DNA of 64,000 nucleotides from Alphaproteobacteria bacterium (GTDB lineage: Bacteria > Pseudomonadota > Alphaproteobacteria > GCA-2731375): contig JASMDX010000049.1 in assembly GCA_030752605.1 (NCBI GenBank), positions 57,726-121,725 on the forward strand, written 5' to 3'. The notes beneath the pieces are model-generated. The model made no database searches. It saw only the letters and a list, made by a program, of their open reading frames with translations, and was not told the DNA's origin. This document shows positions 28,883-64,000 of the stretch, one piece after another. A program made the translations under genes and the position numbers. Numbering within the stretch: position 1 is the stretch's first letter; each line of letters starts with the position of its first letter.

Positions 28883-29793
28883 TATTGCTGATCTGTCTCT
28901 GCTTTCAATTGTTCAGCGAATATCCGCACGGTTTCAGCCAACGTCCGGTCGGTATCGATGGTTTCGCGGGTTTCCGCCGCCAGAGGAGTGGCCGCCATCA
29001 ATTTCAGCATCCACGCAGCGCCACGATGGAAATCGCCGGTTACGCCGGCCCCTTCCATGGTCTCGGCGATCTCGTCCATCTCCGGCCACCAGCGTTCGGA
29101 ATCCGCTGGCAGGCGGGAAATCCCGGTTTGCAGATATTTCCAGGTATCGCCCTGACTAAACGCCAGTTCCGCGCCCAATTCATCAAGCAGATCCAAGGAT
29201 TGCGCCGCCGTCGCAATAGCTGAAAAAAGCGAGAACCGGCCCTTGTTGAGGCCGCTATAGAGCATCTTGAGGGCCGAGGCACGGCCGACTTCGACGCCCA
29301 CAACCTGTAACTTTATGCCCTCCACGGCCAGCGCCTCCGCCGGGGCCAAATTGGGTCCGGAGACGTAGAACCGCGTTGGCTGCGGTCCCTTGCCGGGCGC
29401 CCAGCCGATAATGCCGCAGTCTATGTAGGGCGCACCTGAGCCGTTATTGGCAGACGCCATGATTTCGGCGATTTTACCACTTGATGCGGGTGAAATAGCA
29501 TTGCAATCCATAAAGACCGGAAAACTATCCGTCCGCGTCATCGCCGCCACAACCTCCCCCGCCAAGCCGATGGCGGAGGAGGGCGGCAGGATAGACAGGA
29601 TCAAGGCCGCCTCCCCCACCACGGCATCAAGATCCGGCAAATTACGAAAACCGCCACGTTCCGCCCGCACCTTACTCTCGGCACTCCGCCCAGCCAGACA
29701 GGTGACCACGTCATGGCCGGCATTGTGCAAGACCTGGCCGACGCCGCCGCCCATGTCACCCGGTGCGATGATCGCGATGGTTTGTGAATTCAT
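28882..29793 (-). CDS. NAD(P)-binding oxidoreductase (6-phosphogluconate-dehydrogenase-like NAD-binding domain with DUF1932-type C-terminus)
   Basis: IAIIAPGDMGGGVG Rossmann motif. 303 aa. Its stop abuts the ligase start. Confidence 0.6.
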   Translation of the reverse strand: MNSQTIAIIAPGDMGGGVGQVLHNAGHDVVTCLAGRSAESKVRAERGGFRNLPDLDAVVGEAALILSILPPSSAIGLAGEVVAAMTRTDSFPVFMDCNAISPASSGKIAEIMASANNGSGAPYIDCGIIGWAPGKGPQPTRFYVSGPNLAPAEALAVEGIKLQVVGVEVGRASALKMLYSGLNKGRFSLFSAIATAAQSLDLLDELGAELAFSQGDTWKYLQTGISRLPADSERWWPEMDEIAETMEGAGVTGDFHRGAAWMLKLMAATPLAAETRETIDTDRTLAETVRIFAEQLKAETDQQ

Positions 29794-30278
29794 GTGCTTA
29801 AGCTACCTTTCATCCCCAACCGGCATTGTAGAGGGTCAGGGCGGAATGGTGAAGGGAGCATGGAGTGAGGTCTGCCGTCAAACCGGATCATCGTCCAATA
29901 TACAGCGGACCGCCACGGCGAGTGCCCGATCGGTATACGGCTTACTCAACAGGGCTCCCTCGAAATCGATACGCGATATTGTTTCATGACTCCGGGAACT
30001 GGAAACGGACTGCGGAGAAGCTAAGGAACCCGCGACACATGAATTATCACCAATTTTTTTGATCACGATGCAAAACAAGCTGGTTTAAATCATCGGAACC
30101 GAGCTATCCGGTGCCGTAGGGCCAAGGTCTTACCAACGGGCGAATGACGGCCCTATTGAAAAGAATTCGAGCATGCCGAAAGCGGCTGGATCATCATGCA
30201 GCCGTTTGTAGAAGCCCTGCAGCAAGGCGCAAGTGGCGGCCGCAATTGCGGCAATCCAAAATTAGCACGCCCCCCGCC

Positions 30279-31973
30279 TTACGCAACCAGGTCCCGCAAC
30301 TCCCGGCGCAGTACTTTGCCGACGGGAGATTTGGGAATATCGTCGATAAACTGAATACGTTTTGGCACCTTGTAGTTGGTCAGGCCATCATGGCAATGGG
30401 CAATCACAGCTTCCTCGGTGACTCCATCGTCGTTGCGCACGATGAAAGCCATGGGCACTTCGGAGGATTTTTCATCCGGGATACCGACCACGCCGACCTC
30501 GACCACACCGGGGAGCTTGGAGATGACATCCTCGATCTCATTCGGCGAGACATTGAAGCCCGAAACCAGGATCATATCTTTCTTGCGGTCCACGATCTCA
30601 AGAAAGCCATCCTCGTCCATCACCGCGATGTCGCCGGAATAGAGCCAGCCGTCCTTTAAAGCTTCTGCCGTCGCATCCGGACGGCCGAAGTAACCCTTCA
30701 TGATGGTCGGGCCCTTGAACAATAGCTCGCCGGGCGAACCAATGGGTTGATCGACGCCCTCGTCATCGACGATGCGCACGTCCAGACCAGGCACTGGGAT
30801 ACCGACCGAGCCTAGACGATTCTCACCCAATGGGTTCAGACTCATTACGCCGCAGCATTCCGTCATGCCATAGCCCTGATAGATCTCGACGCCCGTGGCA
30901 TCGGCCCAACGCTGGGCCACGCCAGTCTGTTGCGCCGCACCGCCAGAGCCGCAGAAAACCACGTCCTTGAGCAGATCACGGCTGAACCAGTCTTCCTCCA
31001 ACAGCACCGCGAACAGAGTATTGATGCCGGTAAAGCGGGTGACTTTGAAATTCTCGAACGCGGTTTTCAAATTTGACGGCGGGCGCGGTGACGGCACCAG
31101 AACCATGTGGTCGCCGCCAGCAATACCGAGCACGAAAATCAGGGCGAAGGCGGTAATGTGATACAGTGGCAGGATTACCAGGGTGGTATCGCCATCAGGA
31201 TTGGTGATTTCCTCGGCCAGGCAATTAGCCTGCGCGGCGTTGGCGAGGATGCCCGTATGGCTTAATTCCGCGCCCTTGCTGCGCCCCGTGGTGCCGGAGG
31301 TATATTGGAACAAGGCCGAATCCGCGCCGCTCTGACCTGCGGTATACGACGCGATATCGCCGCCATTCCGCGCCCGTGCGCCTTGACTTAGTGCATCGGC
31401 GAAATCGATATGGGCGTGCGCCATATTGGGAATGGCCTTTTTCACGTGCTTTAGCACGATGCCGATGATCAGCTTTTTCATAAAAGGGAAGAAATCCAGC
31501 AGGGAAATCTTCACCACCTGGCGAACATCCGTGTTACCGACGACCTCGTCGACCTTATCGCCGAACATATCGATAATGATCAGCAACTTGGCCTTGGAAT
31601 CGTTGAGCTGATGTTCCATTTCCGGTGCGGTATAGAGTGGGTTGATATTGGTACAGATTGCACCGGCTAGAAAGGCGCCGGCGGCGGCAATGGTGAAGTC
31701 AATGCAATTGGGCGTCATCATGGCAACGGTCTCGCCCCTTTGCAGCCCGGCGGTCTCGCGCAGATAGGCGGCGAAATCCCTGGAATGCTCCAGCCACTCG
31801 GCATAGTTCAGCGTGGTCGCCGCGCCGTTGGGCAGCACGGTGGTCATCGCCGGACGGTTGGCGAATTCCGTGCCCGCATGATTAATCAATTCGACCAGTG
31901 TACCATGCGCCATGGCGTCCGCATCGAAGTTCCTAGCCGTTTCGCTGTAATACTTCTCCCAAGGTCGCGACAT
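30279..31973 (-). CDS. Long-chain-fatty-acid--CoA ligase (AMP-binding, FadD-like)
   Basis: YTSGTTGRSKGA motif. The start is set at the ATG at 31973 (MSRPWEKYY), which is preceded by a GGAGGCGG RBS. Confidence 0.85.
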   Translation of the reverse strand: MSRPWEKYYSETARNFDADAMAHGTLVELINHAGTEFANRPAMTTVLPNGAATTLNYAEWLEHSRDFAAYLRETAGLQRGETVAMMTPNCIDFTIAAAGAFLAGAICTNINPLYTAPEMEHQLNDSKAKLLIIIDMFGDKVDEVVGNTDVRQVVKISLLDFFPFMKKLIIGIVLKHVKKAIPNMAHAHIDFADALSQGARARNGGDIASYTAGQSGADSALFQYTSGTTGRSKGAELSHTGILANAAQANCLAEEITNPDGDTTLVILPLYHITAFALIFVLGIAGGDHMVLVPSPRPPSNLKTAFENFKVTRFTGINTLFAVLLEEDWFSRDLLKDVVFCGSGGAAQQTGVAQRWADATGVEIYQGYGMTECCGVMSLNPLGENRLGSVGIPVPGLDVRIVDDEGVDQPIGSPGELLFKGPTIMKGYFGRPDATAEALKDGWLYSGDIAVMDEDGFLEIVDRKKDMILVSGFNVSPNEIEDVISKLPGVVEVGVVGIPDEKSSEVPMAFIVRNDDGVTEEAVIAHCHDGLTNYKVPKRIQFIDDIPKSPVGKVLRRELRDLVA

Positions 31974-32121
31974 CTTTTCCGCCTCCATCCCCAAAGCCTC
32001 TTTTATGCCCAAGACGGTATCGTGATTTGCCGCGTAAAACAATTACTACCGAAAGAAAACGCGCAATAACGATGCCCAATTGTTAAGCTGGGCGTAGAAA
32101 CAGAAACTCAGGATCGAGCAT

Positions 32122-33297
32122 ATGAAAATCACCGGCTGTGAAGTCCTGCACTGTGGTGCGGGTTGGCGTAATTTTTCCTTTTTGAAGCTGCAGACGGACG
32201 ACGGCATCACTGGCATCTCGGAATATAACGAGAGCTATGGATCCAAAGGCCTCTCAGCCGTGATTGAGGCCTTGGTCGAAACTCAAATTGGGCAGAACCC
32301 CTGCAATCACGAGGCCATTTCACAGCAGCTTTACGCCATGACGCGGCAGGCGCCGGGCGGCATCAATCAACAGGCCATGGCCGCTATCGAAAATGCCATG
32401 ATGGACATCAAGGGCAAGGCCCTAGGCGTACCAGTCTATGACCTATTGGGCGGTGCGGTGCGGGATCGGATGAAGCTCTATTGGTCCCATTGCGGTAGCT
32501 ATCTGATGAACCCGGCGGCGGCGAAAGCGATCGGACGGTCACCGCTGAAGAACCTCGACGACGTGGAGGCCCTGGGGGCACGAGTGCGGGAGAGCGGCTA
32601 TACGGGCCTGAAGACCAATATCTTCCGCTTTGGTGAGACGCCGCCGCTGCACATGCCCGGCTTTGGGCGGGGGCCGGGCTGTCCTGAGCTGAATGTGGAA
32701 AAGCACATCATCCGCGATCTGAGGGCCCAGTTGGAGGCACTGCGCGAAGGCGCCGGCCCCGACATGGGCATCCACCTTGATATTAATTTCAACTGCAAGA
32801 CCGAAGGGTATTTGCAGATGACCCGGGCCCTGGATGATCTGGGTCTGACCTGGTTCGAAATTGATCTTTACGACCCGGAGGCCCTGCGCCATATCCGCAA
32901 TTCCGTGCAAACGCCCATCGCCTCTTGCGAAAGCCTATTCCGCCTGCGGGAATTCCGTCCGTTCTTTGAAAATCACTCCATGGATGTTGCCATTATCGAT
33001 CTGCCCTGGAACGGGATCTTTCATTCCATGAAGATTGCCGCCATGGCCGAGGCGTACGAAATCAACGTTGCGCCGCATAATTTTTACGGCCATCTATCTT
33101 CCATCATGTCGGCCCATATGTGCGCCGCCGTGCCCAATTTCCGCATCATGGAGATTGATGTGGACGATGTCCCGTGGAAAGACGAGATCGTCACCTATGT
33201 GCCGGAGATCGAGGATGGCTATCTGAATCTACCGAAGGGCCCCGGTTGGGGTACGGAACTGAATGAAGACGTTATCCGCGCCCACCCGCCTATTTAG
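32122..33297 (+). CDS. Enolase-superfamily sugar-acid dehydratase (mannonate/galactonate dehydratase-like subgroup), fourth paralogue
   Basis: MKITGCEV N-terminus and metal-ligand pattern. 391 aa. Confidence 0.75.
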   Translation: MKITGCEVLHCGAGWRNFSFLKLQTDDGITGISEYNESYGSKGLSAVIEALVETQIGQNPCNHEAISQQLYAMTRQAPGGINQQAMAAIENAMMDIKGKALGVPVYDLLGGAVRDRMKLYWSHCGSYLMNPAAAKAIGRSPLKNLDDVEALGARVRESGYTGLKTNIFRFGETPPLHMPGFGRGPGCPELNVEKHIIRDLRAQLEALREGAGPDMGIHLDINFNCKTEGYLQMTRALDDLGLTWFEIDLYDPEALRHIRNSVQTPIASCESLFRLREFRPFFENHSMDVAIIDLPWNGIFHSMKIAAMAEAYEINVAPHNFYGHLSSIMSAHMCAAVPNFRIMEIDVDDVPWKDEIVTYVPEIEDGYLNLPKGPGWGTELNEDVIRAHPPI

Positions 33298-33312
33298 AGA
33301 TTGGATTTGGGA

Positions 33313-34272
33313 ATGAGATTTGTCGTACTGGGTGCGGGCGCCCTGGGCACGGTGATCGCCGCCTATCTCGCCCGTGCCGGCGAGGACGTGGCCCTGATCG
33401 CACGTGGGCCGCGGGCCAAGCAGTTGGCCAATGAAGGCGTCACCATCACCGGCCTGGAGGACTTTACAGTTGAAATGGAAATCGTCGAGCAGCCCAGTTC
33501 ATTGAACAGCGCCGATGTCCTGATCATGGCGACCAAGACCTACGATACCGCCGCCGCCATTGATGCCGTACGCCATATGAAGCTGGGAAGCATTTTTTCC
33601 ATCCAGAACGGCGTCATGAAGAACGTACAGTTGGCGGAAGCTTTTGGCGACGATACGGTCCTGGGTGCCATCGGCATGCTGGGCGGGGCAGTCGAAGCCA
33701 GCGGCGCGGCCAATTTCATGATGGACAACCCAATCCTTGTTGGCGAACTGTCCGGTGCCGATAGCACCAGGGTCGCGGATATCGTCCGTGCGCTAAAGAA
33801 TGCCAAGCTGACAGCGGCGGCCTCCAACACTATTTTGACCGAGGAATGGACAAAATTCGTCGGATGGCTGGGCCTGTCCGGTCTGGCGGTCCTGACACGG
33901 CAAGAAAGCTGGAAATTCATGACCGATAAGGACGGCGCCCGTATAGTCGCCCGGATCATGCAAGATACGGCGCAACTGCCCCAACACCTCGGTATCCCGT
34001 TGAAAACCGGGCCAATGTTCACGTTCGAGGCCATATCGTCCGGGGACGAAGATGCGGTTGTCGCGTTCCTGCGCCGGCGCGGCGAAGCTCAAAGCACGAC
34101 GGCACCCAACTTCCGCCAATCTATGCTGCAGGACGTGGACAAGGGCAAACAATTCGAGGTCGAGGAGACTTTTGGTTACACCGTGCGCAAGGCCAAGGAA
34201 TTCGGCCTCTCCGTGCCTACGGTGGAAACCTGCTATCGAATCCTGTCAGGACTTAACCGCATGCTGCAATGA
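33313..34272 (+). CDS. 2-dehydropantoate 2-reductase family (ketopantoate reductase ApbA/PanE-like)
   Basis: MRFVVLGAGALGTVIAAYLA Rossmann N-terminus with a KPR-like C-terminal domain. Confidence 0.75.
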   Translation: MRFVVLGAGALGTVIAAYLARAGEDVALIARGPRAKQLANEGVTITGLEDFTVEMEIVEQPSSLNSADVLIMATKTYDTAAAIDAVRHMKLGSIFSIQNGVMKNVQLAEAFGDDTVLGAIGMLGGAVEASGAANFMMDNPILVGELSGADSTRVADIVRALKNAKLTAAASNTILTEEWTKFVGWLGLSGLAVLTRQESWKFMTDKDGARIVARIMQDTAQLPQHLGIPLKTGPMFTFEAISSGDEDAVVAFLRRRGEAQSTTAPNFRQSMLQDVDKGKQFEVEETFGYTVRKAKEFGLSVPTVETCYRILSGLNRMLQ

Positions 34273-34320
34273 GCCGCAGTGAATGGACCGTAACGAGCAT
34301 GGATTAGGAAAGGAAGCCCA

Positions 34321-35082
34321 ATGCCATATCTGGACCGCGGCAACGGCGTTCGCATCTATTTCGAGGATAGCGGCGGCAGCGACCTGCCGATCCTGTTGGC
34401 CCATGGTTTTGGCGCCTCGACGGCGATGTGGGCCGGTCAGGTCACCAAATTTTTAGACCGCTACCGCTTGATCACTTGGGACATGCGCGGCCACGGCAGA
34501 ACGGAATGCCCGGAGGATTTGAGTTTTTTTGGTCAGGATGAAACAGTCGACGACATGTGCGCGGTCCTGGATCGTCTCGACATCAGAAAAGCCGTTATCG
34601 GCGGACATTCCCTGGGCGGCTTCATGTCCCTGGCCTTCAACGCGCGTTATCCAGAAAGGGTCGCGGCCCTGATCCTACAGGGCTGTGGGCCGGGATATCG
34701 CAGCGACAGGGCGCGAGAGACCTGGAACGAGCGCGCCGAGAGCCGGGCCAGATCATTGGAGGAAGGCGGCCTTGACGCCCTGGGCGGCACGGGGGAGGTC
34801 AGCGCGTCCATTCAAGGCACCGCGCAGGGTCTGGCGCTTGCGGCGCGGGGTATACTGAATCAAGTCGACGCCCGCGTCATCGACAGCCTGATGGGCATCG
34901 CCGTGCCTACCTTGATTGTCATCGGCGATGGAGACAGCAACTATTTGCAGGGCTCCGACTACATGGCGGCCCGCATCCCCAACGCCGTCAATGTCCTGGT
35001 GGCGAACGCCACCCACGGCGTCAACATCGATCAGCCCGAGGCGGTCAACAAAGCGTTGGGCGAATTCCTGGAGGGTTTGTGA
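34321..35082 (+). CDS. Alpha/beta-fold hydrolase
   Basis: GHSLGG nucleophile-elbow motif. 253 aa. Confidence 0.8.
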   Translation: MPYLDRGNGVRIYFEDSGGSDLPILLAHGFGASTAMWAGQVTKFLDRYRLITWDMRGHGRTECPEDLSFFGQDETVDDMCAVLDRLDIRKAVIGGHSLGGFMSLAFNARYPERVAALILQGCGPGYRSDRARETWNERAESRARSLEEGGLDALGGTGEVSASIQGTAQGLALAARGILNQVDARVIDSLMGIAVPTLIVIGDGDSNYLQGSDYMAARIPNAVNVLVANATHGVNIDQPEAVNKALGEFLEGL

Positions 35083-35240
35083 GGCCGCTCAACCCGTCGG
35101 GATAATGACGATCATGAACATGGCGACGCCGGCGTCACGGTTCAGGTCAAATTAGCGCGGATTAATGACATGGGGCTCTTCATGGAGGCGCCAGTTCGCG
35201 TGCGCTATCGCCGGTTGGCCATTGCGCACGGCTGGAGGCA

Positions 35241-36893
35241 CTATTCCTTCAACAATCGCCGGAACATTTTGCCGGTCGCGCTGAGCGGTAGTTCTTCCCG
35301 AAATTCAACCGCGCGCGGCACCTTGTAGCCGACCATGCGCTGCTTGCAGAAAGTAATGATATCGCCTTCCGCCACCAAGCCACGATGACTTTCCTTCAGC
35401 ACCACGAAGGCCTTCACCACCTCACCCCAATAGTCGTCGGGCTGCCCGGTCACGGCGGCCAATTGCACCGCCGGATGGGCATAAATGACTTCCTCCACCT
35501 CGCGCGGCCAGACCTTATAGCCGGCGCTGTTGATCAGGTCTTTCTTGCGGTCAACGATGGTGAAATAACCCTCGGCATCCATCAACGCGATATCACCGGT
35601 ATGGAACCAGCCGCCCGCCATCGCCATCGCCGTTTCCTCCGGCCGCTTCCAATAGGCCTTCATCACTTGCGGTCCACGGATCACCAACTCGCCTGCCTCG
35701 CCCGCCATCAGATCGGTTCCGGTGTCGGGATCCACAATCTTAGCGTCGGTGTCGCGAAGCGGTATGCCGATCGAGCCCGGCTTGGCCCGGTGTGGTGGAT
35801 TGGCATGGGTCAGCGGGCTGGTTTCCGTCAGGCCATAGCCTTCGATCAGCACCTCGCGGCCAACCAGTTCGTCAAATGCCGCCTTGACACTGGCCGGCAA
35901 TGGCGCAGCCGAGGTGCGGCAGGCGCGCAGTGATGAATAATCGGCTGCCTGCGCCGTCTCGTCATTGAGCAAGGCGATGAACATGGTTGGCACACCGAAC
36001 AAACGGGTGGCGCCGTAATGTTCCACCGTCCGGGCGATCACGCCTGGGCGAAAGTGTTGGAACAGCAGGATCGTCGCGCCTGCATACAAAGGCACGTTCA
36101 GGGCCCCCGACATGCCGCCGCTGTGAAACATGGGTAGGGCGCCAATGCAGGTTTCGGCGCCTGTTTCGAAGGCATACCATTCGGCAAACTGCATGGTGTT
36201 GGCGACGATGTTTCGGTGGCTCAGCATCGCGCCCTTAGGCTGGCCGGTGGTGCCGCCGGTATAGAGCAGCACCGCCACATCTTCCGCCGGGTCGAGCGGA
36301 CAAGGCGTGATTTCTTCTCCGGAAAATGCCAGCAGCTCCGCTAAGGTCAGGGCGCCGGCCTGCGGCGCGGCTTCACTTTCGTCGGCCAGTACCAATTGGA
36401 TGCCCAAGTTGGCGGCGACCTTGTCGGCCACCTCCGCCCGTGCGTAGGTGGCCAGTAGAATGTCAGCCTCGGCGTCTGCCAATAGAGAAGTGGCTTCGCC
36501 CTCGGTCAGGGCCGGGTTGATCGGTACCACCGTCGCCCCCAGCAACCAGGCGGCGTGATAACCCATCACCAGTTCGGCGCAGTTGCCCAACGCCAGGGCG
36601 ACGTGGCCACCCTGGCCAATGCCCAGTTCACGCAGACCGCCAGCCAGGGCTTGTACCGAGCGCCAAAGCTCTCGGTAGGTTATATTGCGGGTTTCGGTAC
36701 CACTTTCATGGTCGATAATGCACAATGCAGAGCGTTCGGAAAAACGTTCGAGATTACGCTGCAACAGCCACCAGGCCGGCACGTCGGGGTAGTCAAGCGT
36801 GGCGGGAAGATGCGCCGGCCAGGCGTGGCGCCAAGGGGGCGTCCCGTCAGCCCCGGATCGGCTAGGCACCTCCCGAGGCCACCTCCAGGCCAT
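35241..36893 (-). CDS. AMP-forming acyl-CoA ligase
   Basis: LLYTGGTTGQPKGAMLSH motif. 550 aa. Its start overlaps the upstream OFOR gamma gene by 32 nt. Confidence 0.85.
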   Translation of the reverse strand: MAWRWPREVPSRSGADGTPPWRHAWPAHLPATLDYPDVPAWWLLQRNLERFSERSALCIIDHESGTETRNITYRELWRSVQALAGGLRELGIGQGGHVALALGNCAELVMGYHAAWLLGATVVPINPALTEGEATSLLADAEADILLATYARAEVADKVAANLGIQLVLADESEAAPQAGALTLAELLAFSGEEITPCPLDPAEDVAVLLYTGGTTGQPKGAMLSHRNIVANTMQFAEWYAFETGAETCIGALPMFHSGGMSGALNVPLYAGATILLFQHFRPGVIARTVEHYGATRLFGVPTMFIALLNDETAQAADYSSLRACRTSAAPLPASVKAAFDELVGREVLIEGYGLTETSPLTHANPPHRAKPGSIGIPLRDTDAKIVDPDTGTDLMAGEAGELVIRGPQVMKAYWKRPEETAMAMAGGWFHTGDIALMDAEGYFTIVDRKKDLINSAGYKVWPREVEEVIYAHPAVQLAAVTGQPDDYWGEVVKAFVVLKESHRGLVAEGDIITFCKQRMVGYKVPRAVEFREELPLSATGKMFRRLLKE

Positions 36894-43825: not shown

Positions 43826-44245
43826 CTATTTTTTTGAACCGAAGCTGAACAGTGACTTTTTCGCTGGCGGCGCGCCATCGTTGGCGGCGTCGGACTTGGC
43901 GTCATTCTTGCCGCCGCCGGCACCGGAAACCGGCGCGCCCTTGGCGAGCACATCCGTCAGGGTGGAGGAGATCACTTTGACTCGAACATTTTCCGCCAAC
44001 TCCACCTGCACCGTGGTGTCGTCAATGACCTTGGTCACCTTGCCGAACAGACCGCCGCCGGTGACCACCTGGTCGCCGCGGCGCACGTTGGAGACCATTT
44101 CACGATGTTCCTTGGCCTTTTTCTGCTGCGGGCGGATCAAAAAGAACCAAAACACGACGAAAATCAGCAACAGGGGCATCAACTGTACGAACATGCCGCC
44201 GTCGGCCGCGCCGCCGGCCTGCGCAAAAGCGGGCGAAATGAGCAT
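43826..44245 (-). CDS. yajC: Preprotein translocase subunit YajC
   Basis: Single TM helix (LMPLLLIFVVFWFFLIRPQQKKAK) and a YajC-like C-terminus, upstream of secD. Confidence 0.85.
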   Translation of the reverse strand: MLISPAFAQAGGAADGGMFVQLMPLLLIFVVFWFFLIRPQQKKAKEHREMVSNVRRGDQVVTGGGLFGKVTKVIDDTTVQVELAENVRVKVISSTLTDVLAKGAPVSGAGGGKNDAKSDAANDGAPPAKKSLFSFGSKK

Positions 44246-44448
44246 AAAGAATTCTCCGGTATCTAGTGTCTTGGGTCAGAAATTAAGTCGCGTTTAGAAC
44301 GGTCATTTAAGGCGGCGGACTATAGCCCCGCCGTGGTAGATTGCAAACGCTAAAGCAAACATGCCATCAGCACTCGAGGCGCACTCTATCAGGTGCTGCT
44401 CGTTCCGTCGCACGGCAAGTCCTGGCCAGTCGAATTTTAAGTGCCGTC

Positions 44449-44832
44449 TCATTCCGGTATGATCGCCTCGATGTCGATTTCCATTTTCAGCTCGGGTTTG
44501 GCGAGGCCAGCGACAATAAGTCCAGTCGAACAGGGGTAGACCCCTTCAAGCCAGCGTCCGATCACCCGGTATACAGGCTCGCGGTAGGCATAGTCGGTTA
44601 TGTAGATGGTCGTTTTGCAGATGTGCGCCAGTTCAGCGCCGGCTTCCTCCAACAGTGCTTTCACGTTGGTCATGGCGGTCTCGGTCTGGGCGGCCGGATC
44701 GTCGCCGGCATAGACTCCGTTCAGAGAGGTCGCCGACTGCCCGCGCAGAAAGACCCGGTTGCCGGCTTTCACCGCCATGCAAAGGCCGAAATCAATATCA
44801 TGGCCAACCTTGCCCACGTATCGGTCGCGCAT
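44449..44832 (-). CDS. RidA/YjgF/TdcF-family protein
   Basis: The C-terminal half (TTIYITDYAYREPVYRVIGRWL...IDIEAII) is RidA-like. The start is ambiguous: an internal ATG at 44832 (MRDRYVGKV) versus TTG at 44898. Confidence 0.6.
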   Translation of the reverse strand: MRDRYVGKVGHDIDFGLCMAVKAGNRVFLRGQSATSLNGVYAGDDPAAQTETAMTNVKALLEEAGAELAHICKTTIYITDYAYREPVYRVIGRWLEGVYPCSTGLIVAGLAKPELKMEIDIEAIIPE

Positions 44833-44919
44833 GTTGAATTTGCGAAATCTCTTGTGTGCCAATTTATCTTCTCCCCGATAAGTGTCTGGATTATCCAATA
44901 GTGGACGGCATGAACACCA

Positions 44920-46284
44920 TCACCGTGGCGCGCAGCATTTCTTGTACTTCAGGCCACTGCCGCAGTGGCAGGGGTCATTTCGGCCAGGCTTCCTGTTTCC
45001 ATGCCCGGCGTCCGTCATGATCCCAACGGCGGGACGGCGTTGACGTAGCAATTCCGCCATGCGCGCCATTGCCGGGCGGGTGTGGCTGTATATGCGTCGA
45101 TAGCCCTGGCAAAGATGATTCAAGCCCGCCTGACCGGACTTGGTTCTCGCAAACCGATGCTTGGGACAACCCCCATTGCAAAGAGATAGGTCTGCACAAT
45201 TCATGCACTGCCGGGGCAAATCACTCTTCTTGGCCTGCCCAAACCGCCGCTGTTGCGGCGCCGAGACCATTTCGTCGAGGTTTCCGTCGCAGATGTTACC
45301 CAGCCGGTATTGCGGATAGACAAAGTGATCGCAGGCGTAAAGATCACCGTTGCTTTCCATGGCTGGATTTCTGCCGCAAGTTTCGGCGAACAGGCACAGG
45401 CTAATAGGTTCGCCCATGGTGCCGGCCAGGATGACGTCGAACATCTGCACGAAAACCCTGCTGACGTCCTTGGCGATCCATTCATCAAAAATGGCGCACA
45501 TGAAATCGCCGTAAAGGCGCGGCTCAGCGCAAAAATCGGCCGTGCGGCAGTTTTCAGCGGCTTCGGCGGCTCCGTTAGCCAAGGATGGTGGCCCGGCGAG
45601 GTCACCGTCCACCCCTACCCGCTCGACAATGGGAATAAACTGCATGAAGCGAAAACCCAGGCCTTTGAGGTGGCGGTAGACTTTGAGCGGATGGTGCTCA
45701 TTGACGGCGTTCACCGTAGCCATGGCATTCACCTCGACCTTGTGCCGCTGCAGAATCTCGAGGCTTTTCAGTACCCGTGCATGGGTGGGCCGCCCCAGGT
45801 GATCGCGGCGATAGCCATCATGCAGGTCGGCGGGACCATCCAGGCTCAATCCAACCAGAAAGTTATTGTCATGAAGGAAACGGCCCCAATCGTCCGTGAA
45901 CGCCAGGCCGTTGCTTTGCAGGGCGTTGGTGATGCGGCGCCCGGTCGGGGCATGGCGTTCCTGCAAGGCGACGACGCGCTTGAAGAAATTCAAACCCATC
46001 AAAGTCGGTTCGCCGCCCTGCCACATAAAATGGATTTCGGGCCCTGGCTGTGCCTCGATTTGCCGTTCGACATAGGTTTCCAGCACCGTATCGCTCATCC
46101 GGAAATCGGATCTGTCGGGATACATCTCCGTCTTCTCGAGATAGAAGCAATACTCGCAGGACAAATTGCACAAGGGGCCAATCGGCTTAGCAAGAATGTT
46201 AACGGCGGCGGCGGTTGAATCTGACAAGGTGCTCACTCTGTGGACGGTCTCAAAATATGGCGGTAGTTTACAATGAATTCGCAA
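44920..46284 (-). CDS. Radical SAM/SPASM-domain protein (anaerobic sulfatase-maturase-like) with C-terminal SEC-C zinc-finger motif
   Basis: CNLSCEYC (Cx3Cx2C) near the N-terminus. A Cys-rich SPASM region (CLFAETCG...CDHF...CMNCADLSLCNGGCPKH) follows. The C-terminus is PCHCGSGLKYKKCC (SEC-C). Confidence 0.8.
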   Translation of the reverse strand: MRIHCKLPPYFETVHRVSTLSDSTAAAVNILAKPIGPLCNLSCEYCFYLEKTEMYPDRSDFRMSDTVLETYVERQIEAQPGPEIHFMWQGGEPTLMGLNFFKRVVALQERHAPTGRRITNALQSNGLAFTDDWGRFLHDNNFLVGLSLDGPADLHDGYRRDHLGRPTHARVLKSLEILQRHKVEVNAMATVNAVNEHHPLKVYRHLKGLGFRFMQFIPIVERVGVDGDLAGPPSLANGAAEAAENCRTADFCAEPRLYGDFMCAIFDEWIAKDVSRVFVQMFDVILAGTMGEPISLCLFAETCGRNPAMESNGDLYACDHFVYPQYRLGNICDGNLDEMVSAPQQRRFGQAKKSDLPRQCMNCADLSLCNGGCPKHRFARTKSGQAGLNHLCQGYRRIYSHTRPAMARMAELLRQRRPAVGIMTDAGHGNRKPGRNDPCHCGSGLKYKKCCAPR

Positions 46285-46373
46285 CGGAGGCGCGCGACAA
46301 ACTGACCGTTGACCGCACGGGCCGGCGGGACTACGTTCCCGGCCTTCCAGAAATATTAGGCCAAGAGAATTTC

Positions 46374-47261
46374 ATGTCCGCTTCCAAATCAGACACTACA
46401 TCCGCCCTGAATGCTGACGTCGCGCCCCTTTTGGCCCGCATCGCCGATGCCCTGGAACGCATGGCACCGCCCAAGATCGATACCATCGATCTAAGCGCCG
46501 CCGATGCCTTTGTTTGGCATGCCGACAAAGGCCGGCTCGCGCCAGTCACCAAGGTCAGCCGCATTGAGCTCTACCTATTGCAAGGCATCGAAACTCAATG
46601 CGATATCCTCTCGGAGAATACCCGTCGCTTCACGGAAGGGCTGCCGGCCAATAATGCCTTGTTGTGGGGCGCGCGCGGCACCGGCAAGAGCAGCCTGGTG
46701 AAGGCCTTGCACGGCGCCATTGTTCAGGAAACACCCGGCGCCTTGAAACTGGTGGAAATTCATCGTGAAGATATACCCTCCCTGCCCCAATTGTTGACAT
46801 TGATGCGGCAGAGCGAGCATCGCTACGTACTGTTTTGCGATGATCTATCCTTTGACCATGACGATGCGGCGTACAAATCCCTGAAAGCGATCCTGGAAGG
46901 CGGAATCGAGGGCCGGCCCGGCAATGTGATCTTTTACGCCACTTCTAACCGCCGACACCTGATGCCGCGCGACATGATGGAGAACGAACGCTCGACCTCA
47001 ATCAACCCCTCGGAAGCGACGGAGGAAAAGGTCTCCCTCTCCGACCGTTTTGGATTGTGGCTGGGCTTTCATAACTGCAGCCAGGATGATTTCATCAGCA
47101 TGCTGCAGGGTTATTGCGAACATTATGGCCTGGATATCAGCGACGAGGACCTGCGTGCCCAGGCCATCGAATGGTCGGTCACCCGGGGCGCCCGCAATGG
47201 CCGGGTGGCTTGGCAGTTCATTCAAGATCTGGCCGGGCGTTTAGGCGTCAGGATCGATTAG
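46374..47261 (+). CDS. DUF815-type P-loop ATPase
   Basis: Walker A (GARGTGKSSLV) and Walker B (VLFCDDLS). The start is taken at the ATG at 46374 (MSASKSD); the ORF-track start at 46215 would overlap the divergent radical SAM gene. Confidence 0.6.
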   Translation: MSASKSDTTSALNADVAPLLARIADALERMAPPKIDTIDLSAADAFVWHADKGRLAPVTKVSRIELYLLQGIETQCDILSENTRRFTEGLPANNALLWGARGTGKSSLVKALHGAIVQETPGALKLVEIHREDIPSLPQLLTLMRQSEHRYVLFCDDLSFDHDDAAYKSLKAILEGGIEGRPGNVIFYATSNRRHLMPRDMMENERSTSINPSEATEEKVSLSDRFGLWLGFHNCSQDDFISMLQGYCEHYGLDISDEDLRAQAIEWSVTRGARNGRVAWQFIQDLAGRLGVRID

Positions 47262-48310: not shown

Positions 48311-49342
48311 TTAGGCTGCGCGAACGGCGCGGGCAATTTCGCTCCATTTACCAAGGTTGTCCGGGTTCTGGTGGATCGATTCCTCTGCCAGATACATCAC
48401 CACTCTGGCAGCCGTACCCTGATAACGGGCGATCAGCTTGTCCGCCATGTCATCCCAACGGGCGACAAGGCCGAAATGATCCAGTATCTCGTCACTGACG
48501 AGGCCGACAAGGGCATCGTTATCGCCGCTTTTCAGATGCACCCGAAATTTATCGCGCATGCCCTCGTAACCCAGATCATCGAACTGGAAGGAATAGTTCG
48601 GCGTGGCGCCATAGAAACCGATCTGCGTCTTGGCGCGCTGTACGCCCCAATTACGCTCCTCCGAGCTATCGCCGGCGATGGCGAAAACTGGAATAATCAG
48701 GTCGATTCCGGCAGGGTCACGGCCAACCTGGGCCGCGCCTTCCGCCAGGTTCGGCAACAGTCGGTTTTGGATGTAGGGTATGGAATGCATAGGGTGCACA
48801 TGCACGCCGTCCGCCAACTCGCCGGCGACCTTGGTCATGTAGGGTCCGACGGCGGAAATATCCAGTTTGACATCTTCATAATCGTGCCGTGCGGGCGTCC
48901 ACTGTTCAGGCAACAGGCTAAGATTGTAATACGGCCCCTCGTGCTGCAATGGCCCCTCGCGGCAAAAAGCCTTCAGGCAGGCACGGACAGCTTGCAGGTA
49001 ATCCTTCATCTGCGGCGCCGGGCGGTCGAAAACCGAGGCATAGCGCCGGGTGACATGCGCCTTGACCTGACTGCCCAGGCCAAGCCGAAAGCGGCCCTTG
49101 GTATTAGCGGCCAATTCCCAGGCGATTTGGGCCGACATCATGGGGCTGCGGGGAAACGCCACGGCAATTCCGGTGCTGAATTCAAGCTTTTTGGCAGCCA
49201 TTGCAGCGGCGGTAATGGCCATCCAGGGCACCTGGCTGGCCTCGGTCACCAGCATGCCGGAAAACCCGGCACCTTCAAGGCGCTGGGCCAGGTCGGCGGA
49301 GTTTTCCCAGTTTGAGGCCCGGGCCATGAGATCGAATTCCAT
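48311..49342 (-). CDS. LLM-class (luciferase-like) flavin-dependent oxidoreductase
   Basis: Luciferase-like TIM-barrel pattern. The start is set at the ATG at 49342 (MEFDLMARAS), preceded by an AGGAGG RBS at 7 nt spacing. Confidence 0.75.
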   Translation of the reverse strand: MEFDLMARASNWENSADLAQRLEGAGFSGMLVTEASQVPWMAITAAAMAAKKLEFSTGIAVAFPRSPMMSAQIAWELAANTKGRFRLGLGSQVKAHVTRRYASVFDRPAPQMKDYLQAVRACLKAFCREGPLQHEGPYYNLSLLPEQWTPARHDYEDVKLDISAVGPYMTKVAGELADGVHVHPMHSIPYIQNRLLPNLAEGAAQVGRDPAGIDLIIPVFAIAGDSSEERNWGVQRAKTQIGFYGATPNYSFQFDDLGYEGMRDKFRVHLKSGDNDALVGLVSDEILDHFGLVARWDDMADKLIARYQGTAARVVMYLAEESIHQNPDNLGKWSEIARAVRAA

Positions 49343-49391
49343 TACATTTCCTCCTGAACCACAAAGTCTTCTTCTACTCGTATTATCGTCC

Positions 49392-50033
49392 CTATTGTCT
49401 TCCGGACGGCATACCTTCGACAAGGGGCACAAAACGGACTGGCAACAGGACCTCTTCATGAAAGCCATTGCTGTCTCTGGTCAGACGGATCAGGGTCTGG
49501 TCCCCCGGCACCCCCACGGGTACCACCATGATACCGCCCTCACCCAATTGATCGGCCAGAATGCCGGGCATGCTGGGCGCGGCGGCGGTAACGATGATAC
49601 GGGGAAAAGTCGCCAATTCCGGCCAGCCCTTAGCACCATCGCTCAAACGGGTGGAGATATTGTGCAGCTTCAGTGCCTTGAAACAGGTTTCGGCCTGGGC
49701 CAGCAATGAACGATAGCGCTCAATGGTGCAGACACGCCGGCAGAGCTTGGCCAGAACGGCAGCCTGATAGCCCGACCCGGTACCGATTTCCAAGACCCGG
49801 TCACGTTCACCCAATTGCAGGGCCTGGGTCATGAATGCGACGATAAAGGGTTGGCTGATGGTCTGGCCCTGGTTGATGGGAAGAGGCAGGTTCTCGTAGG
49901 CTTCGGAACGCAACGCCTCGGGTACGAACAATTCCCTGGGCACGCGCTCAATGGCGCTCAAAACCCGTTTGTCGGTAATGCCCTGCTTACGCAGCTCCAT
50001 GATGAGGCGGATCTTGTGCGCCTCGTAACTCAT
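49392..50033 (-). CDS. pcm: Protein-L-isoaspartate O-methyltransferase
   Basis: SAM-methyltransferase motifs (VLEIGTGSGYQAAVLA) and the conserved surE-pcm-nlpD order. Confidence 0.9.
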   Translation of the reverse strand: MSYEAHKIRLIMELRKQGITDKRVLSAIERVPRELFVPEALRSEAYENLPLPINQGQTISQPFIVAFMTQALQLGERDRVLEIGTGSGYQAAVLAKLCRRVCTIERYRSLLAQAETCFKALKLHNISTRLSDGAKGWPELATFPRIIVTAAAPSMPGILADQLGEGGIMVVPVGVPGDQTLIRLTRDSNGFHEEVLLPVRFVPLVEGMPSGRQ

Positions 50034-61066: not shown

Positions 61067-61159
61067 AGCGCGGCTGCTTGGGCTATGATATTTGCGATCG
61101 AAGACGATCAATTAGGGGAATCGAAAGGTGGGGAAAGGAACAGACTAGGGAGAATAATC

Positions 61160-64000
61160 GTGCGCGTAGCTGGCTGTGATCTGGGCAAGGCGTCCGTGGG
61201 GTTCGTAACCGCCGCGGTGACTGAAGACGGTAAGGTGGAGATAGAGGGCGCTGGCTATAAATTGCACGAAGGCGATCCCCTGGGCTTGTTCAAGAAGTGG
61301 TACCACGACAACGATATCGCATCCTGTGCCGCTCTGGCCGCGACCGGCGTCTATGCCGATGAACTGCGCGAGCCTGTCTTGATTCTGCCCGAGGATTCCT
61401 GTCAGGAAGCCGCCCTTGAGATCAACCCAGACCTTGAAGACGCCCTGAACCTGGTATCCATCGGCGCCCGCGGCTATGGCGCTCTCAGCCGCAAACCGGC
61501 CGAGGGGCAGAATGGCGCCAAAAACGGCGTGGGGCCGAAGTATCACTACCAATACCTCGAGAACGACAAATGCTCGTCCGGTACAGGCGAAAATATCCAG
61601 AAGATCGCCGACCGTTTCGGCCTGGGCGTTGACGATGCGGACAAGGCGGCGCAGGCAGCCGACGAGGCCATTCCCATCACCGCGCGTTGCTCTGTTTTCG
61701 CCAAATCCGAGATGACCCATTTCGCCAACCAGGGCAAGGCCACCGGTGATTTGTTCAAGGGCTATTTCGGCTCCGTCGCCCGCAACACCTATGCCCTGCT
61801 GATGCGCAACCGGGTCGGCGGCCCGGTTTACCTGATGGGCGGGCCGGCGCGGATCGAGAGCTTCCGCCGCTCGTTCGAAGAGATGTTGGGCGAAGAGGTA
61901 AAGGTGCCGCCGCTGGCGGAGTGTTTCGAGGCCGTGGGCGCCGCCGCGATCGCCGCCGAACAGGCGCGAAACACCTCCCTCGCCGCCCTGCCCGCCAAAC
62001 CGACGGAACTGATCGCGCCGGCCGAGAACCGCTTCCAGGTGCAGGCACCGGCCAGCGGCTGGCAAGAGCATGTGACCATGATGGCGGAACCGGAAGTGCC
62101 CACCGGCGTGGCGGAGACGCCAACCGTTCTGGGCCTTGATCTCGGCTCCACCGGGGCCAAGGCTGTCCTGACCTCGATCGAAACCGGCGAGATCGTGCTC
62201 GACGTTTACGACAGCACCCGGGGCAACCCGGTCGATGCCGCCCGCCGTCTGGTCATGACCATATTGGCGCAGGCCAAGGCCGACGTGCGTGCCATCGGCG
62301 TTACCGGTTCGGGCAGGGAAGCCGTCGCCACGTTGCTGCGCGCGGTCTATCCCGACAACGACAATATTATCGTACTGAACGAAATCGTCGCCCACGCCAC
62401 CGGCGCGGCGCGCTGTGATGTGGATGGCGGGGCCGATCTGTCGGTGATCGAGATTGGCGGCCAGGACGCCAAGTACATCCGGGTCCAGGGCGGCCGTATC
62501 GTCGAAAGCGACATGAACAAGGCGTGCAGCGCCGGCACCGGTTCGTTCCTGGAAGAACAGGCAACGATTTACGATGTCGACGACATACAAGAGTTCATTG
62601 ATCTGGCTTCGTCCGCCAAGCGGCCACCCGATCTGGGCATGATGTGCACGGTCTATGTCGCCGATGCCGCCTCGCAAGCCATCAAAGAAGGTTTTGGTCG
62701 CGACGATATCTTCGCCGGCTTTCAATATTCGGTCATCCACAACTATCTAAACCGGGTGATGGGCCAGCGCACGCCGGGGGCGCGGATCTTCTTCCAGGGC
62801 AAGCCGGCTTCCAACCCATCCCTGGCCTGGACCCTGGCCGCCGTCACCGGGCGCGACATCGTGGTGCCACCCAATCCCGGCGCCATGGGCGCCTGGGGCA
62901 TCGGCCTTTGCGCCATCAAGGAAATTGGCCAGGACGCGCTTGACGCCGCGCCCAGCCTCGATCTTGCCGATATTTTGCAGGCGGAGATCACGGCGCGGAT
63001 GGAATTCCGCTGCCGCGACGCCAAGTGCCAGACGCTTTGTCCCATCGAACGCACCACCATCACGGTAGATGGGCAGAGCCGCCAGGCGGTCTCCGGCGGA
63101 GCCTGTCCGAAGTTCGAGATCTCCACCGCCAGCCAGCCGAAATTGGCCAAGGATGCTCCGAACCCGTTTGAACAGCGCCAGGCGTTGATCGACAGCTTCG
63201 TGATCGGGCGCGAGGGCGCGCCGAGCCTTGCCATACCGGAGCTTAGCGCCCTCAACGGGCACATCCCCTGGCTCGCCACTTTCGCGGCCGAACTAGGCTT
63301 CTCGGTCAAACTGCTGCGCTCCACGGGCAAGTCCCTGGCGGCTGGCGAACAGCTTTGCAACAGTTTCGACAGTTGCGGCCCGGTCAAGATCGCCCATGCG
63401 GTCTGTGACCTGTACGACGGCATCTTGCTGTTTCCAAAAGTATTCCGCATCTCCGACGTCAATGGCCGGGGCGGCCAGACCTGCATGACCGAACAGGCCA
63501 TGCCGGACATGATCGAACGCTCCCTGTTGGCCCGTGGCAAGGGGGCCAAGGTGGTACGCCCACGCATCTCCTTCGGCGACGGTCTGGACACACCAGAACT
63601 AGTCGAGGAAATGCGCCGCATCGCCAGCCAGATCGGCGCTGATCCGGCCAAGATCGGCGATGCTGTCAGCGCTGCCGCTCGGGCGCAGCTACGCTACGAA
63701 GAAGACCTGATGGCAATTGGCCGGGAAGCGATGGCGTATGCCAAGGCCAACGATCTGCCGGCGGTCCTGCTGGTCGGTCACCTGCACGTCATCAACGACC
63801 CGGCGATCAATGCCAACATCCCCCATCTGGTCCGCCGTAACGGCGCCATGGCCATTCCTGTGGATTGCTTTGAAATCGACGATCAGACGCCGGCCATGTG
63901 GAAAGCCTATTGGGGCGATGACAACCGGGCCATCCGGGCCGCAGTGCAAAGCCGCGAGATGGGTGATGTCTTTCCGGTCTTCCTGGCCTCATTCGGCTGC
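61160..64000 (+). CDS. Partial (3'-truncated by window) giant CoA-substrate-specific enzyme activase-type protein: two BadF/BadG/BcrA/BcrD ASKHA ATPase modules fused to an HgdB/dehydratase-like domain
   Basis: GTG at 61160 sits 8 nt downstream of a GGGAG RBS. I translated 947 codons to position 64000 without a stop. Module 1 has VAGCDLGKASVG...KCSSGTGENIQK; module 2 has VLGLDLGSTGAKAV...KACSAGTGSFLEEQ. Then come Cys-rich segments (CRDAKCQTLCP, CNSFDSCGPVKIAHAVCD). It is absent from the ORF track only because it has no stop inside the window. The ORF-track entries 61145-62740(-) and 62743-63651(-) are its antisense shadows. Confidence 0.8.
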   Translation, partial: MRVAGCDLGKASVGFVTAAVTEDGKVEIEGAGYKLHEGDPLGLFKKWYHDNDIASCAALAATGVYADELREPVLILPEDSCQEAALEINPDLEDALNLVSIGARGYGALSRKPAEGQNGAKNGVGPKYHYQYLENDKCSSGTGENIQKIADRFGLGVDDADKAAQAADEAIPITARCSVFAKSEMTHFANQGKATGDLFKGYFGSVARNTYALLMRNRVGGPVYLMGGPARIESFRRSFEEMLGEEVKVPPLAECFEAVGAAAIAAEQARNTSLAALPAKPTELIAPAENRFQVQAPASGWQEHVTMMAEPEVPTGVAETPTVLGLDLGSTGAKAVLTSIETGEIVLDVYDSTRGNPVDAARRLVMTILAQAKADVRAIGVTGSGREAVATLLRAVYPDNDNIIVLNEIVAHATGAARCDVDGGADLSVIEIGGQDAKYIRVQGGRIVESDMNKACSAGTGSFLEEQATIYDVDDIQEFIDLASSAKRPPDLGMMCTVYVADAASQAIKEGFGRDDIFAGFQYSVIHNYLNRVMGQRTPGARIFFQGKPASNPSLAWTLAAVTGRDIVVPPNPGAMGAWGIGLCAIKEIGQDALDAAPSLDLADILQAEITARMEFRCRDAKCQTLCPIERTTITVDGQSRQAVSGGACPKFEISTASQPKLAKDAPNPFEQRQALIDSFVIGREGAPSLAIPELSALNGHIPWLATFAAELGFSVKLLRSTGKSLAAGEQLCNSFDSCGPVKIAHAVCDLYDGILLFPKVFRISDVNGRGGQTCMTEQAMPDMIERSLLARGKGAKVVRPRISFGDGLDTPELVEEMRRIASQIGADPAKIGDAVSAAARAQLRYEEDLMAIGREAMAYAKANDLPAVLLVGHLHVINDPAINANIPHLVRRNGAMAIPVDCFEIDDQTPAMWKAYWGDDNRAIRAAVQSREMGDVFPVFLASFGC

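Follow-up and report, generated by a model that had tools for sequence, protein, structure and literature searches.

A SEC-C-tailed member of the anaerobic sulfatase maturase family in a segment inserted between DUF815 and yajC in an alphaproteobacterial lineage

Results

The 64-kb stretch of alphaproteobacterial DNA analysed here (the window) carries a radical SAM/SPASM gene for which anaerobic sulfatase maturase (anSME) is a suitable annotation. We think it likely that the product is a genuine anSME of a tailed subtype whose clients are encoded elsewhere, that the gene was brought in by an insertion of ~1.95 kb, and that its present neighbours are historical accidents.

By sequence, catalytic residues and fold, the protein belongs to the anSME family. 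It scored 464.6 bits against TIGR03942, the curated equivalog model for anaerobic sulfatase maturases (cutoff 349.45), over profile positions 2–362 of 363. Among the 120 best homologues, many carry the name anaerobic sulfatase maturase; the best solved relative is anSMEcpe of C. perfringens (PDB 4K36, E 1.2e-63). An earlier note on this DNA had called the protein ‘anSME-like’ and had reported a Cx3Cx2C motif with a full SPASM cysteine array; the HMM classification upholds the call, and all of these cysteines align to ligands of anSMEcpe. The CX3CX2C motif of the radical SAM [4Fe-4S] cluster (C23/C27/C30; 46147–46170, (−) strand) aligns to C15/C19/C22 of anSMEcpe and is conserved at 90% or above in an alignment that we refer to as A1. 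The SPASM region (45109–45396, (−) strand), delimited by alignment to anSMEcpe, holds eight auxiliary-cluster cysteines and D303, all nine of which are invariant in A1. According to the ligand list of anSMEcpe (PMC5715301), C281, C287, C302 and C357 correspond to the Aux I ligands C255/C261/C276/C330, and C344, C347, C353 and C376 to the Aux II ligands C317/C320/C326/C348, so that each of the two auxiliary [4Fe-4S] clusters has its four cysteine ligands (seven SPASM cysteines and one upstream). D303 aligns to Asp277 of anSMEcpe and Y32 to Tyr24; in total, the 11 cluster cysteines and both of these residues are retained. The 2013 anSMEcpe structure paper reportedly places Asp277 and Tyr24 in the active site and proposes Asp277 as the base. 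An AF2 model of the protein (pLDDT 72.5, low near the cluster-binding loops) was used for fold assignment only. Its top Foldseek match was 4K39 (E 2.4e-27), and the eight chains of anSMEcpe filled the top eight places (E 2e-27 to 1e-25, target TM 0.79–0.85).

Pfam searches of the open reading frame (44920–46284, (−) strand) placed Radical_SAM at residues 35–204, SPASM at 310–363 and SEC-C at 435–453, in agreement with the domain order previously described. The C-terminal sequence had likewise been read correctly, as the protein ends in ...GRNDPCHCGSGLKYKKCCAPR. The anSME gene itself is taken as 44920–46236 ((−) strand, 438 aa, stop codon 44920–44922). The GTG at 46236 is most likely its real start, because an identical database protein (P0001) begins there; a 2-nt indel carried by the sister lineage L002 just upstream excludes coding in that stretch. 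The gene is under purifying selection, with dN/dS of 0.13–0.16 against sister lineages, tail included.

The genes on either side belong to a conserved backbone. Divergent from the anSME gene is a DUF815 AAA-type ATPase gene (46374–47261, (+) strand, 295 aa; PF05673, E 4.5e-103), whose open reading frame spans 46215–47261. Its product shares 70–80% identity with proteins of 285–297 aa from Rhodospirillaceae and Azospirillum, and from these lengths we take ATG 46374 as the start. With the anSME start at 46236, the divergent gap is then 137 nt; the earlier note was right about the divergent transcription and put the gap too low, at about 90 nt. On the other side lies yajC (43826–44245, (−) strand; PF02699, TIGR00739), the first gene of yajC-secD-secF. 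In relatives that lack the insert, DUF815 is directly divergent from yajC-secDF across a gap of 189–223 nt, and L091, L093 and L095 show this backbone free of the anSME gene. Comparison with the insert-free relatives delimits a segment of ~1.95 kb (44358–46308, unstranded) that carries the anSME and Rid genes and separates the divergent promoters of DUF815 and yajC. On its flanks, the two ancestral promoter blocks are still present. The yajC-side block (44307–44357, (−) strand; TTGCAA, 16–17 nt, TATAGT) aligns to the intergenic regions of L091, L093 and L006. The DUF815-side block (46309–46362, (+) strand; TTGACCGC...GGACTACGTTCC) aligns to those of L091, L093, L002 and L006; in the uninterrupted regions of L091 and L093, it is the part nearest DUF815 that matches.

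The GC3 of the insert is similar to that of its flanks, and a search around it for terminal repeats or mobile-element ends returned only short chance matches. The window scans found no tRNA gene and no Rfam match, and hence no tRNA integration site and no riboswitch. Counts from the promoter/terminator scan were not above those of shuffled sequence; the sole promoter-like match of the region falls in the yajC-side block and, not being above chance by itself, is believable only because it lies inside that conserved block.

All 10 of the anSME loci with a DUF815 match belong to the window's own lineage, being the window and L001–L009. It is not beside an anSME gene in L010, L096 or L097. Among the matches listed, DUF815 adjoined anSME at 0 of 80 genome loci, and yajC or secDF was near it at 0 of 80 other loci. 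Wherever anSME is absent, DUF815 pairs with yajC. The DUF815–anSME adjacency therefore stems from the insertion and not from a common function. The earlier note had raised the possibility of a conserved radical SAM/DUF815 pair and had held that a lack of conservation, combined with a sulfatase encoded nearby outside the window, would refute its reading; the neighbourhood comparison confines the pair to the window's own narrow lineage.

These data also bear on whether the radical SAM enzyme forms a functional module with DUF815 and/or YajC-SecDF, the SEC-C tail providing the link to Sec. The gene shares a divergent promoter region with DUF815, it is on the same strand as yajC-secDF at a distance of 203 nt upstream, and its tail resembles SecA's metal-binding domain (MBD). 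Such a module is nonetheless highly improbable and is largely refuted by the neighbourhood comparison: DUF815, yajC and secDF are nearby at none of the 80 other loci among the matches listed, the DUF815–yajC adjacency is older than the anSME gene, which lies in an insert between their promoters, and three other genes lie between anSME and yajC in the sister lineage L006.

The second gene of the insert encodes a Rid-family (YjgF/L-PSP) protein (44449–44862, (−) strand, 137 aa; PF01042, E 4.9e-18). The Ribonuc_L-PSP open reading frame spans 44449–44898 on the same strand as anSME. Its start is most likely TTG 44862, which is preceded by a Shine-Dalgarno sequence (GGGGAGAAG), is used by the NCBI gene call and lies 57 nt downstream of the anSME stop. 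The gene is cargo of the same insert and is probably co-transcribed with anSME. It had been described as a RidA-like gene following the maturase. A Rid-family gene is indeed there; the RidA subgroup model TIGR00004 gives 52.5 bits against a cutoff of 106.25, however, and only the broad PF01042 model is passed. The protein reads PCST where RidA proteins have what we take to be an Arg-containing motif. Rid is not conserved as a neighbour of anSME and is missing even from the sister lineages.

We found no sulfatase in the 64-kb window by the C/S-x-P-x-R motif, by a purpose-built sulfatase HMM or by Pfam searches of long ORFs, which extends the earlier observation that none is adjacent; nor did the sulfatase HMM find one in 21 kb of the sister contig L006. 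This is typical of the family. Among the matches listed, a sulfatase was present within 10 kb at 34 of 80 genome loci and within 200 nt at 19, and the gene had an orphan location at the remaining 46. The nearest outgroup homologues, P0004 (66% identity) and P0005 (59%), both stand beside Cys-type sulfatases. Given these outgroups and the anSME equivalog match, the earlier statement that the substrate is unknown was too strong. The enzyme would then be expected to form formylglycine on the host's own sulfatases.

The absence of a sulfatase could also be read as a sign that the enzyme is the maturase of a nearby-encoded RiPP or of some other non-sulfatase substrate, as the earlier note suspected. 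SPASM enzymes often modify peptides, and the protein has weak partial matches to the DynA, DarE and YhhB models. These matches amount to about 90–170 bits against cutoffs of 340–650, however, while the anSME model is passed. None of the RiPP SPASM maturase models tried (DynA, DarE/DarW, YhhB, GrrM, PapB, SCIFF and others) scored above cutoff, the best score being 171.5 bits against 450 for DynA. No credible RiPP precursor ORF was found in 44246–44448 or 46237–46373, and the intergenic regions as first delimited (44246–44448 and 46285–46373) contain no credible short Cys/Ser-rich ORF. The sole small ORF rich in these residues, of 49 aa (44303–44452), overlaps the conserved promoter block of yajC, and the other small ORFs considered as precursors were fragments of long ORFs. 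The neighbours common to the three sub-lineages are backbone genes only. A role in the maturation of a RiPP or other non-sulfatase substrate encoded nearby is thus very unlikely.

In all three sub-lineages the anSME gene stands as an orphan but is under purifying selection, and this could reflect recruitment of an anSME-type enzyme to a non-sulfatase client. One candidate is a secreted 301-aa protein of the sister lineages, which is 86% conserved, has no Pfam domain, and is convergent to and abuts anSME in L002 to L009. The window has no copy of this protein, however, and the protein lacks the C/S-x-P-x-R motif. Moreover, the catalytic and client-side residues that we compared are those of the family consensus, and an orphan location is normal for the family. 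We regard recruitment as improbable, and favor sulfatase clients encoded elsewhere in the genome.

The enzyme is joined by a short variable linker to a SEC-C/SecA-like MBD (GRNDPCHCGSGLKYKKCC, G418–C435; 44932–44985, (−) strand), which matches PF02810 with 35.6 bits (E 8e-9, cutoff 20.4). The CxCx8C[CH] ligand motif is present together with the conserved Ser and Tyr when CHCGSGLKYKKCC is aligned to SecA. The tail matches the E. coli SecA MBD (1SX0), the SecB-complexed SecA peptide (1OZB) and the C-terminal domain of YchJ (9L6B), with 4 differences from the E. coli SecA MBD in 20 aligned positions. The earlier note called this extension unusual. Rather, it is the majority form in the close and mid-distance homologues retrieved: PF02810 was found in 118 of the 120 best homologues, a count biased upward as tailed hits outscore others against a tailed query, and, among the matches listed, in 64 of 80 genome loci, which span many phyla and none of which exceeds 52% identity.

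The SecA MBD binds SecB and ribosomes, and the same domain is part of AscA/YecA and of many methionine aminopeptidases; binding of Zn/Fe, SecB and ribosomes by the MBD is known for SecA and AscA only, and the functional role of the conserved Ser is taken from the literature. In the literature searched we found no experiment on tailed anSMEs and no discussion of the anSME tail. By analogy with SecA, the tail may dock the enzyme on ribosomes and/or SecB. In the window's lineage a Leu takes the place of the Lys/Arg of most family members and of SecA (GSG-L-KYK), a substitution that could weaken a SecB-type contact.

Alternatively, the Cys4 SEC-C site might bind iron and serve this oxygen-sensitive enzyme as an electron relay, in the manner of rubredoxin, or as a redox/oxygen sensor. 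Iron has been reported as the in vivo ligand of SecA-like MBDs, YchJ, which has SEC-C motifs, has been reported as a ROS sensor, and the tail comes after the helix behind the Aux II cluster that is thought to carry the electron to the protein surface (PMC5715301). Conservation of the tail goes beyond the metal ligands to GRNDP, GSG and KYK, however, as in MBDs that bind SecB and ribosomes, and the linker, which varies in length in A1, suggests a tether and not a fixed relay. A redox function of the tail therefore seems unlikely.

We also considered whether the tail goes with Sec-exported sulfatases, and rejected this. In the loci read, sulfatases adjoining tailed anSMEs were of the leaderless Cys type in 20 of 29 cases, and those adjoining tail-less anSMEs had signal-peptide-like N-termini in 10 of 13. 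The trend is thus opposite when counted by gene (Fisher p = 0.008), but it loses significance when loci are counted (p = 0.24) and taxonomy is a confounder, and it serves only as an argument against a Sec-only role.

Discussion

Together, these results lead us to propose that the window encodes a cytoplasmic radical SAM/SPASM protein with three [4Fe-4S] clusters that would oxidise the Cys (or Ser) of C/S-x-P-x-R in still-unfolded sulfatases to C-alpha-formylglycine. Its client sulfatases would be encoded elsewhere in the genome, as is usual for the anSME family. The enzyme belongs to a large subtype, found across many phyla, in which a short flexible linker bears a SecA-like SEC-C domain; by docking on the ribosome and/or SecB, this tail may allow the client to be met before it folds. 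The gene itself lies, in this Rhodospirillaceae-like lineage of alphaproteobacteria, within the ~1.95-kb segment, here together with a Rid gene, whose insertion separated the divergent promoters of DUF815 and yajC-secDF in a conserved backbone. Because the segment was inserted into such a backbone, we interpret the DUF815, Rid and Sec neighbours as accidents of history, and the apparent link of anSME to these genes can be dropped. For the window itself this matters little.

The modest but real wider point is that a large share of anSMEs bear a near-copy of the ribosome- and SecB-binding domain of SecA. It is possible, and we suggest it tentatively, that the tail tethers much of the family to the ribosome and/or SecB, such that formylglycine is made co-translationally, before the active-site Cys is buried. 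Such tethering would not be restricted to Sec export, and the gene in the window would be one ordinary example of it. Should the tail act as a ribosome tether, this would account for the timely encounter between the enzyme and the unfolded client that it needs, and radical SAM chemistry would join the known co-translational modifications.

Among known systems, the closest is anSMEcpe (4K36–4K39), which shares with the window protein the HMM family, the CX3CX2C motif, the auxiliary-cluster cysteines and the Asp277/Tyr24 positions, and which is the best fold match. The two proteins are only ~30% identical, however, and compared with the 370-aa anSMEcpe the window protein has an extra insert of ~25 residues after the TIM-barrel core (residues ~205–230), as well as the C-terminal linker and SEC-C domain. 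The Bacteroides-type anaerobic sulfatase-maturation protein (NF010308/PRK13745) is matched with 439 bits over profile positions 10–404 of 412; this is under the cutoff of 484, and the profile stops short of the SEC-C tail. Thus neither the characterised enzyme anSMEcpe nor the Bacteroides-type NCBIfam profile includes such a tail. RiPP radical SAM/SPASM maturases (DynA, DarE, YhhB, SCIFF and others) belong to the same superfamily and share the SPASM domain, but the window protein falls far under the cutoff of each of these families and has no precursor gene. The tail itself is most like the MBD of SecA, found also on AscA/YecA, YchJ and many methionine aminopeptidases, with which it shares CxCx8CC, GRNDP, the GSG Ser, the KY Tyr and a C-terminal placement on a flexible linker; it differs from these in being fused to a radical SAM enzyme and in having Leu in place of Lys after GSG.

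The radical SAM gene encodes an anaerobic sulfatase maturase

The earlier note had described an anSME-like radical SAM/SPASM protein (anSME, anaerobic sulfatase-maturating enzyme) with a SEC-C tail, and ORF calls together with Pfam (Radical_SAM, SPASM and C-terminal SEC-C) confirmed this ORF at 44920-46284 (−) as real, along with the Rid-family (Ribonuc_L-PSP) ORF downstream on the same strand and the divergent DUF815 ATPase ORF. HMM classification, which that note had proposed as a check, backed the assignment: the protein scored 464.6 bits against the NCBIfam equivalog TIGR03942 (anaerobic sulfatase maturase; cutoff 349.45). A RiPP maturase identity was rejected, as DynA, DarE/W, YhhB, GrrM, PapB, SCIFF and other models all scored far under their own cutoffs. 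The closest solved structure was the C. perfringens enzyme anSMEcpe (4K36, E 1.2e-63), and alignment to it matched all radical SAM cysteines (C15/C19/C22), all Aux I (C255/C261/C276/C330) and Aux II (C317/C320/C326/C348) ligands, as listed in PMC5715301, and both Asp277 and Tyr24. Across 18 aligned family members, each of these positions was invariant or showed conservation of at least 90%. Using an AlphaFold2 model (pLDDT 72.5), we found that the top Foldseek matches were eight anSMEcpe chains (E ~1e-26). Relative to two sister lineages the gene showed a dN/dS of 0.13-0.16, indicating purifying selection, and its last 45 codons followed the same pattern as the whole gene. The window gene is a new anSME of a known family, with a common architecture.

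The anSME start is most likely GTG at 46236, giving 438 aa as in the identical database protein P0001; at the 81%-identical sister locus, L002, a 2-nt indel lies immediately 5′ of this codon, so the stretch upstream of it is non-coding. Since DUF815 homologues are 285-297 aa long, we placed the DUF815 start at ATG 46374, and the corrected starts are 137 nt apart rather than the ~90 nt first estimated. For the Rid gene, the most likely start is TTG 44862, which is preceded by a GGGGAGAAG Shine-Dalgarno sequence.

The anSME gene was inserted into a conserved backbone

The window DUF815 shares 70-80% identity with Rhodospirillaceae and Azospirillum proteins, which suggests a Rhodospirillaceae-like alphaproteobacterial host. 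In Azospirillum thiophilum and two MAG lineages (DUF815 78-80% identical) the backbone lacks the radical SAM gene and is organized as serS-surE-pcm-(LysM/M23)-DUF815, divergent from yajC-secD-secF-DUF498, with a DUF815-yajC gap of 189-223 nt. Two ancestral blocks from the intergenic region of these relatives are kept in the window, one on the yajC side (44307-44357, with a TTGCAA-16/17-TATAGT promoter-like site) and one on the DUF815 side (46309-46362), and the 1,951 nt between them bear the Rid and anSME genes. The anSME gene was placed by insertion into this backbone. Because no tRNA gene was found beside the insert and no terminal repeats around it, and its GC3 equals that of the flanks, the Rid-anSME segment is an old insertion that shows no recognisable signs of a mobile element. 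In the sister lineages (81% and 77% identity) anSME occupies the same site, with other cargo beyond. In both, a convergent gene next to anSME encodes a secreted protein of ~301 aa (L006:11395-12300 (−) and L002:11383-11802 (−); 86% identity between the sisters) that has no Pfam domain and is missing from the window, and one sister additionally has a 158-aa ORF and a GST gene. Conservation of the radical SAM/DUF815 pair had been proposed as a check; DUF815, yajC or secDF was close to anSME in 0 of the 80 loci listed outside the window and sister lineages, so the pairing is synteny confined to a single narrow lineage, not a functional module.

Conservation of the yajC promoter block between lineages is strong (the window and matching stretches of L006 and of two relatives without anSME, L091 and L093). 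A GC-rich inverted repeat, GGCGG(C/G)GG ACTATAG CCCCGCC, carries the block's TATAGT hexamer in its loop. The window's yajC leader has ~40 nt (44267-44306) more than its relatives. Between pcm and the LysM/M23 gene the backbone has a second variable spot, where the window lineage and sisters have an F420-dependent LLM-class oxidoreductase (48311-49468 (−), TIGR03617 288.7 bits) that is missing in L091 and in L095, another relative without anSME, and L093 has an EamA gene.

Elsewhere, the window has adjacent selA and selB (23369-26784 (+); selenocysteine synthase and Sec-specific elongation factor), and neither tRNA-Sec nor any other tRNA was found in it. Three AMP-binding (acyl-CoA synthetase-like) paralogues lie inside 10 kb at 27338-36893. 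Two ORFs have no Pfam match: one of 601 aa (17824-19629 (+)), in the 2-kb bin of strongest negative AT skew (−0.172), and one of 531 aa (61145-62740 (−)), close to hydantoinase A/B-type genes.

Orphan location is normal for the family

As the earlier note had observed, no sulfatase is adjacent; none was found across the 64-kb window by motif, by an HMM built from related loci or by Pfam on long ORFs. Beyond the window's own lineage, the two closest homologues both have linked sulfatases: the P0004 gene (66% identity) lies immediately downstream of a PF00884 sulfatase gene, and P0005 (59% identity) has two sulfatases ~5 kb off on the same contig. At the nearest outgroup locus (L096:2623-4728) the anSME gene call is N-terminally shortened, an overlapping 65-aa ORF may signal a frameshift, and a DDE transposase fragment follows the gene. 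Among the 80 loci listed, a sulfatase was within 10 kb of anSME in 34 and within 200 nt in 19. The remaining 46, plus the Consotaella aegiceratis gene, are orphans as in the window, so this location is normal for the family, and we infer that it is consistent with a single maturase for several sulfatases at scattered sites. The two intergenic regions flanking anSME/Rid, pointed to earlier as places for a RiPP precursor, held no credible Cys/Ser-rich small ORF; the sole candidate (49 aa, 44303-44452) was rejected as it overlaps the conserved yajC promoter block. An Rfam scan of the whole window gave no match. What the earlier note observed was confirmed, and its interpretation is only partly supported.

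The SEC-C tail is widespread and may tether the maturase

The tail had been called unusual. PF02810 was present in 118 of the best 120 homologues (of at least 8000 below E 1e-20; named anaerobic sulfatase maturase where the source gives a name), and anSME genes ended in a CxCx8-9C[CH] motif at 64 of the 80 listed GTDB species genome loci (Acidobacteriota, Verrucomicrobiota, Planctomycetota, Poribacteria, Chloroflexota, Latescibacterota, Bacteroidales, Gemmatimonadota and a Consotaella isolate included), both counts being biased to tailed proteins because the query has a tail. Despite this bias the architecture is widespread and no oddity of the window gene. In an alignment of family members, the consensus tail has 18 residues and is joined to the enzyme through a linker of variable length.

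With SAM and the radical SAM cluster, anSMEs abstract a hydrogen from C-beta of the Cys or Ser in C/S-x-P-x-R. Oxidation of the substrate follows, the auxiliary clusters carrying off the electron, and yields the formylglycine that sulfatases require. Folding of the sulfatase buries this motif, so the enzyme needs a client that has not yet folded. Full-length sulfatases were leaderless (no room for a signal peptide, or no hydrophobic segment) in 20/29 cases beside tailed anSMEs versus 3/13 beside tail-less ones, where 10/13 had a signal peptide-like N-terminus; this trend (Fisher test: p = 0.008 counted by gene and p = 0.24 counted by locus) is a lead only, being confounded by taxonomy and drawn with a crude classifier. 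The sulfatase beside P0004 is leaderless as well. Sulfatases linked to tailed anSMEs (L010, L015, L018, L025, L029, L034, L041, L058, L062, L070, L076, L087, L089 and L096) are mostly Cys-type and leaderless, opening straight into the sulfatase domain. A tail role restricted to Sec export is unlikely, since the sulfatases beside tailed anSMEs are mostly leaderless. A literature search gave no paper connecting anSMEs with SEC-C or SecA, and the unstudied tail of this family is the only aspect meriting more work.

In a less likely rival reading, the tail's Cys4 site would have a redox or electron-relay function; iron has been reported as the in vivo ligand in metal-binding domains that resemble SecA's, and YchJ has been reported as a ROS sensor. 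The resemblance of the tail to the SecA metal-binding domain, and what that domain binds elsewhere, suggest that the tail may tether the maturase to ribosomes and/or SecB, which would bring it into contact with unfolded sulfatases. Between the window tail and the E. coli SecA domain, 4/20 aligned positions differ, and the tail also matches the SecA peptide crystallised with SecB. The SecA domain binds SecB and ribosomes, AscA/YecA has a SecA-like metal-binding domain with the same role, and a SecA-like domain is found on many methionine aminopeptidases, enzymes that work on nascent chains.
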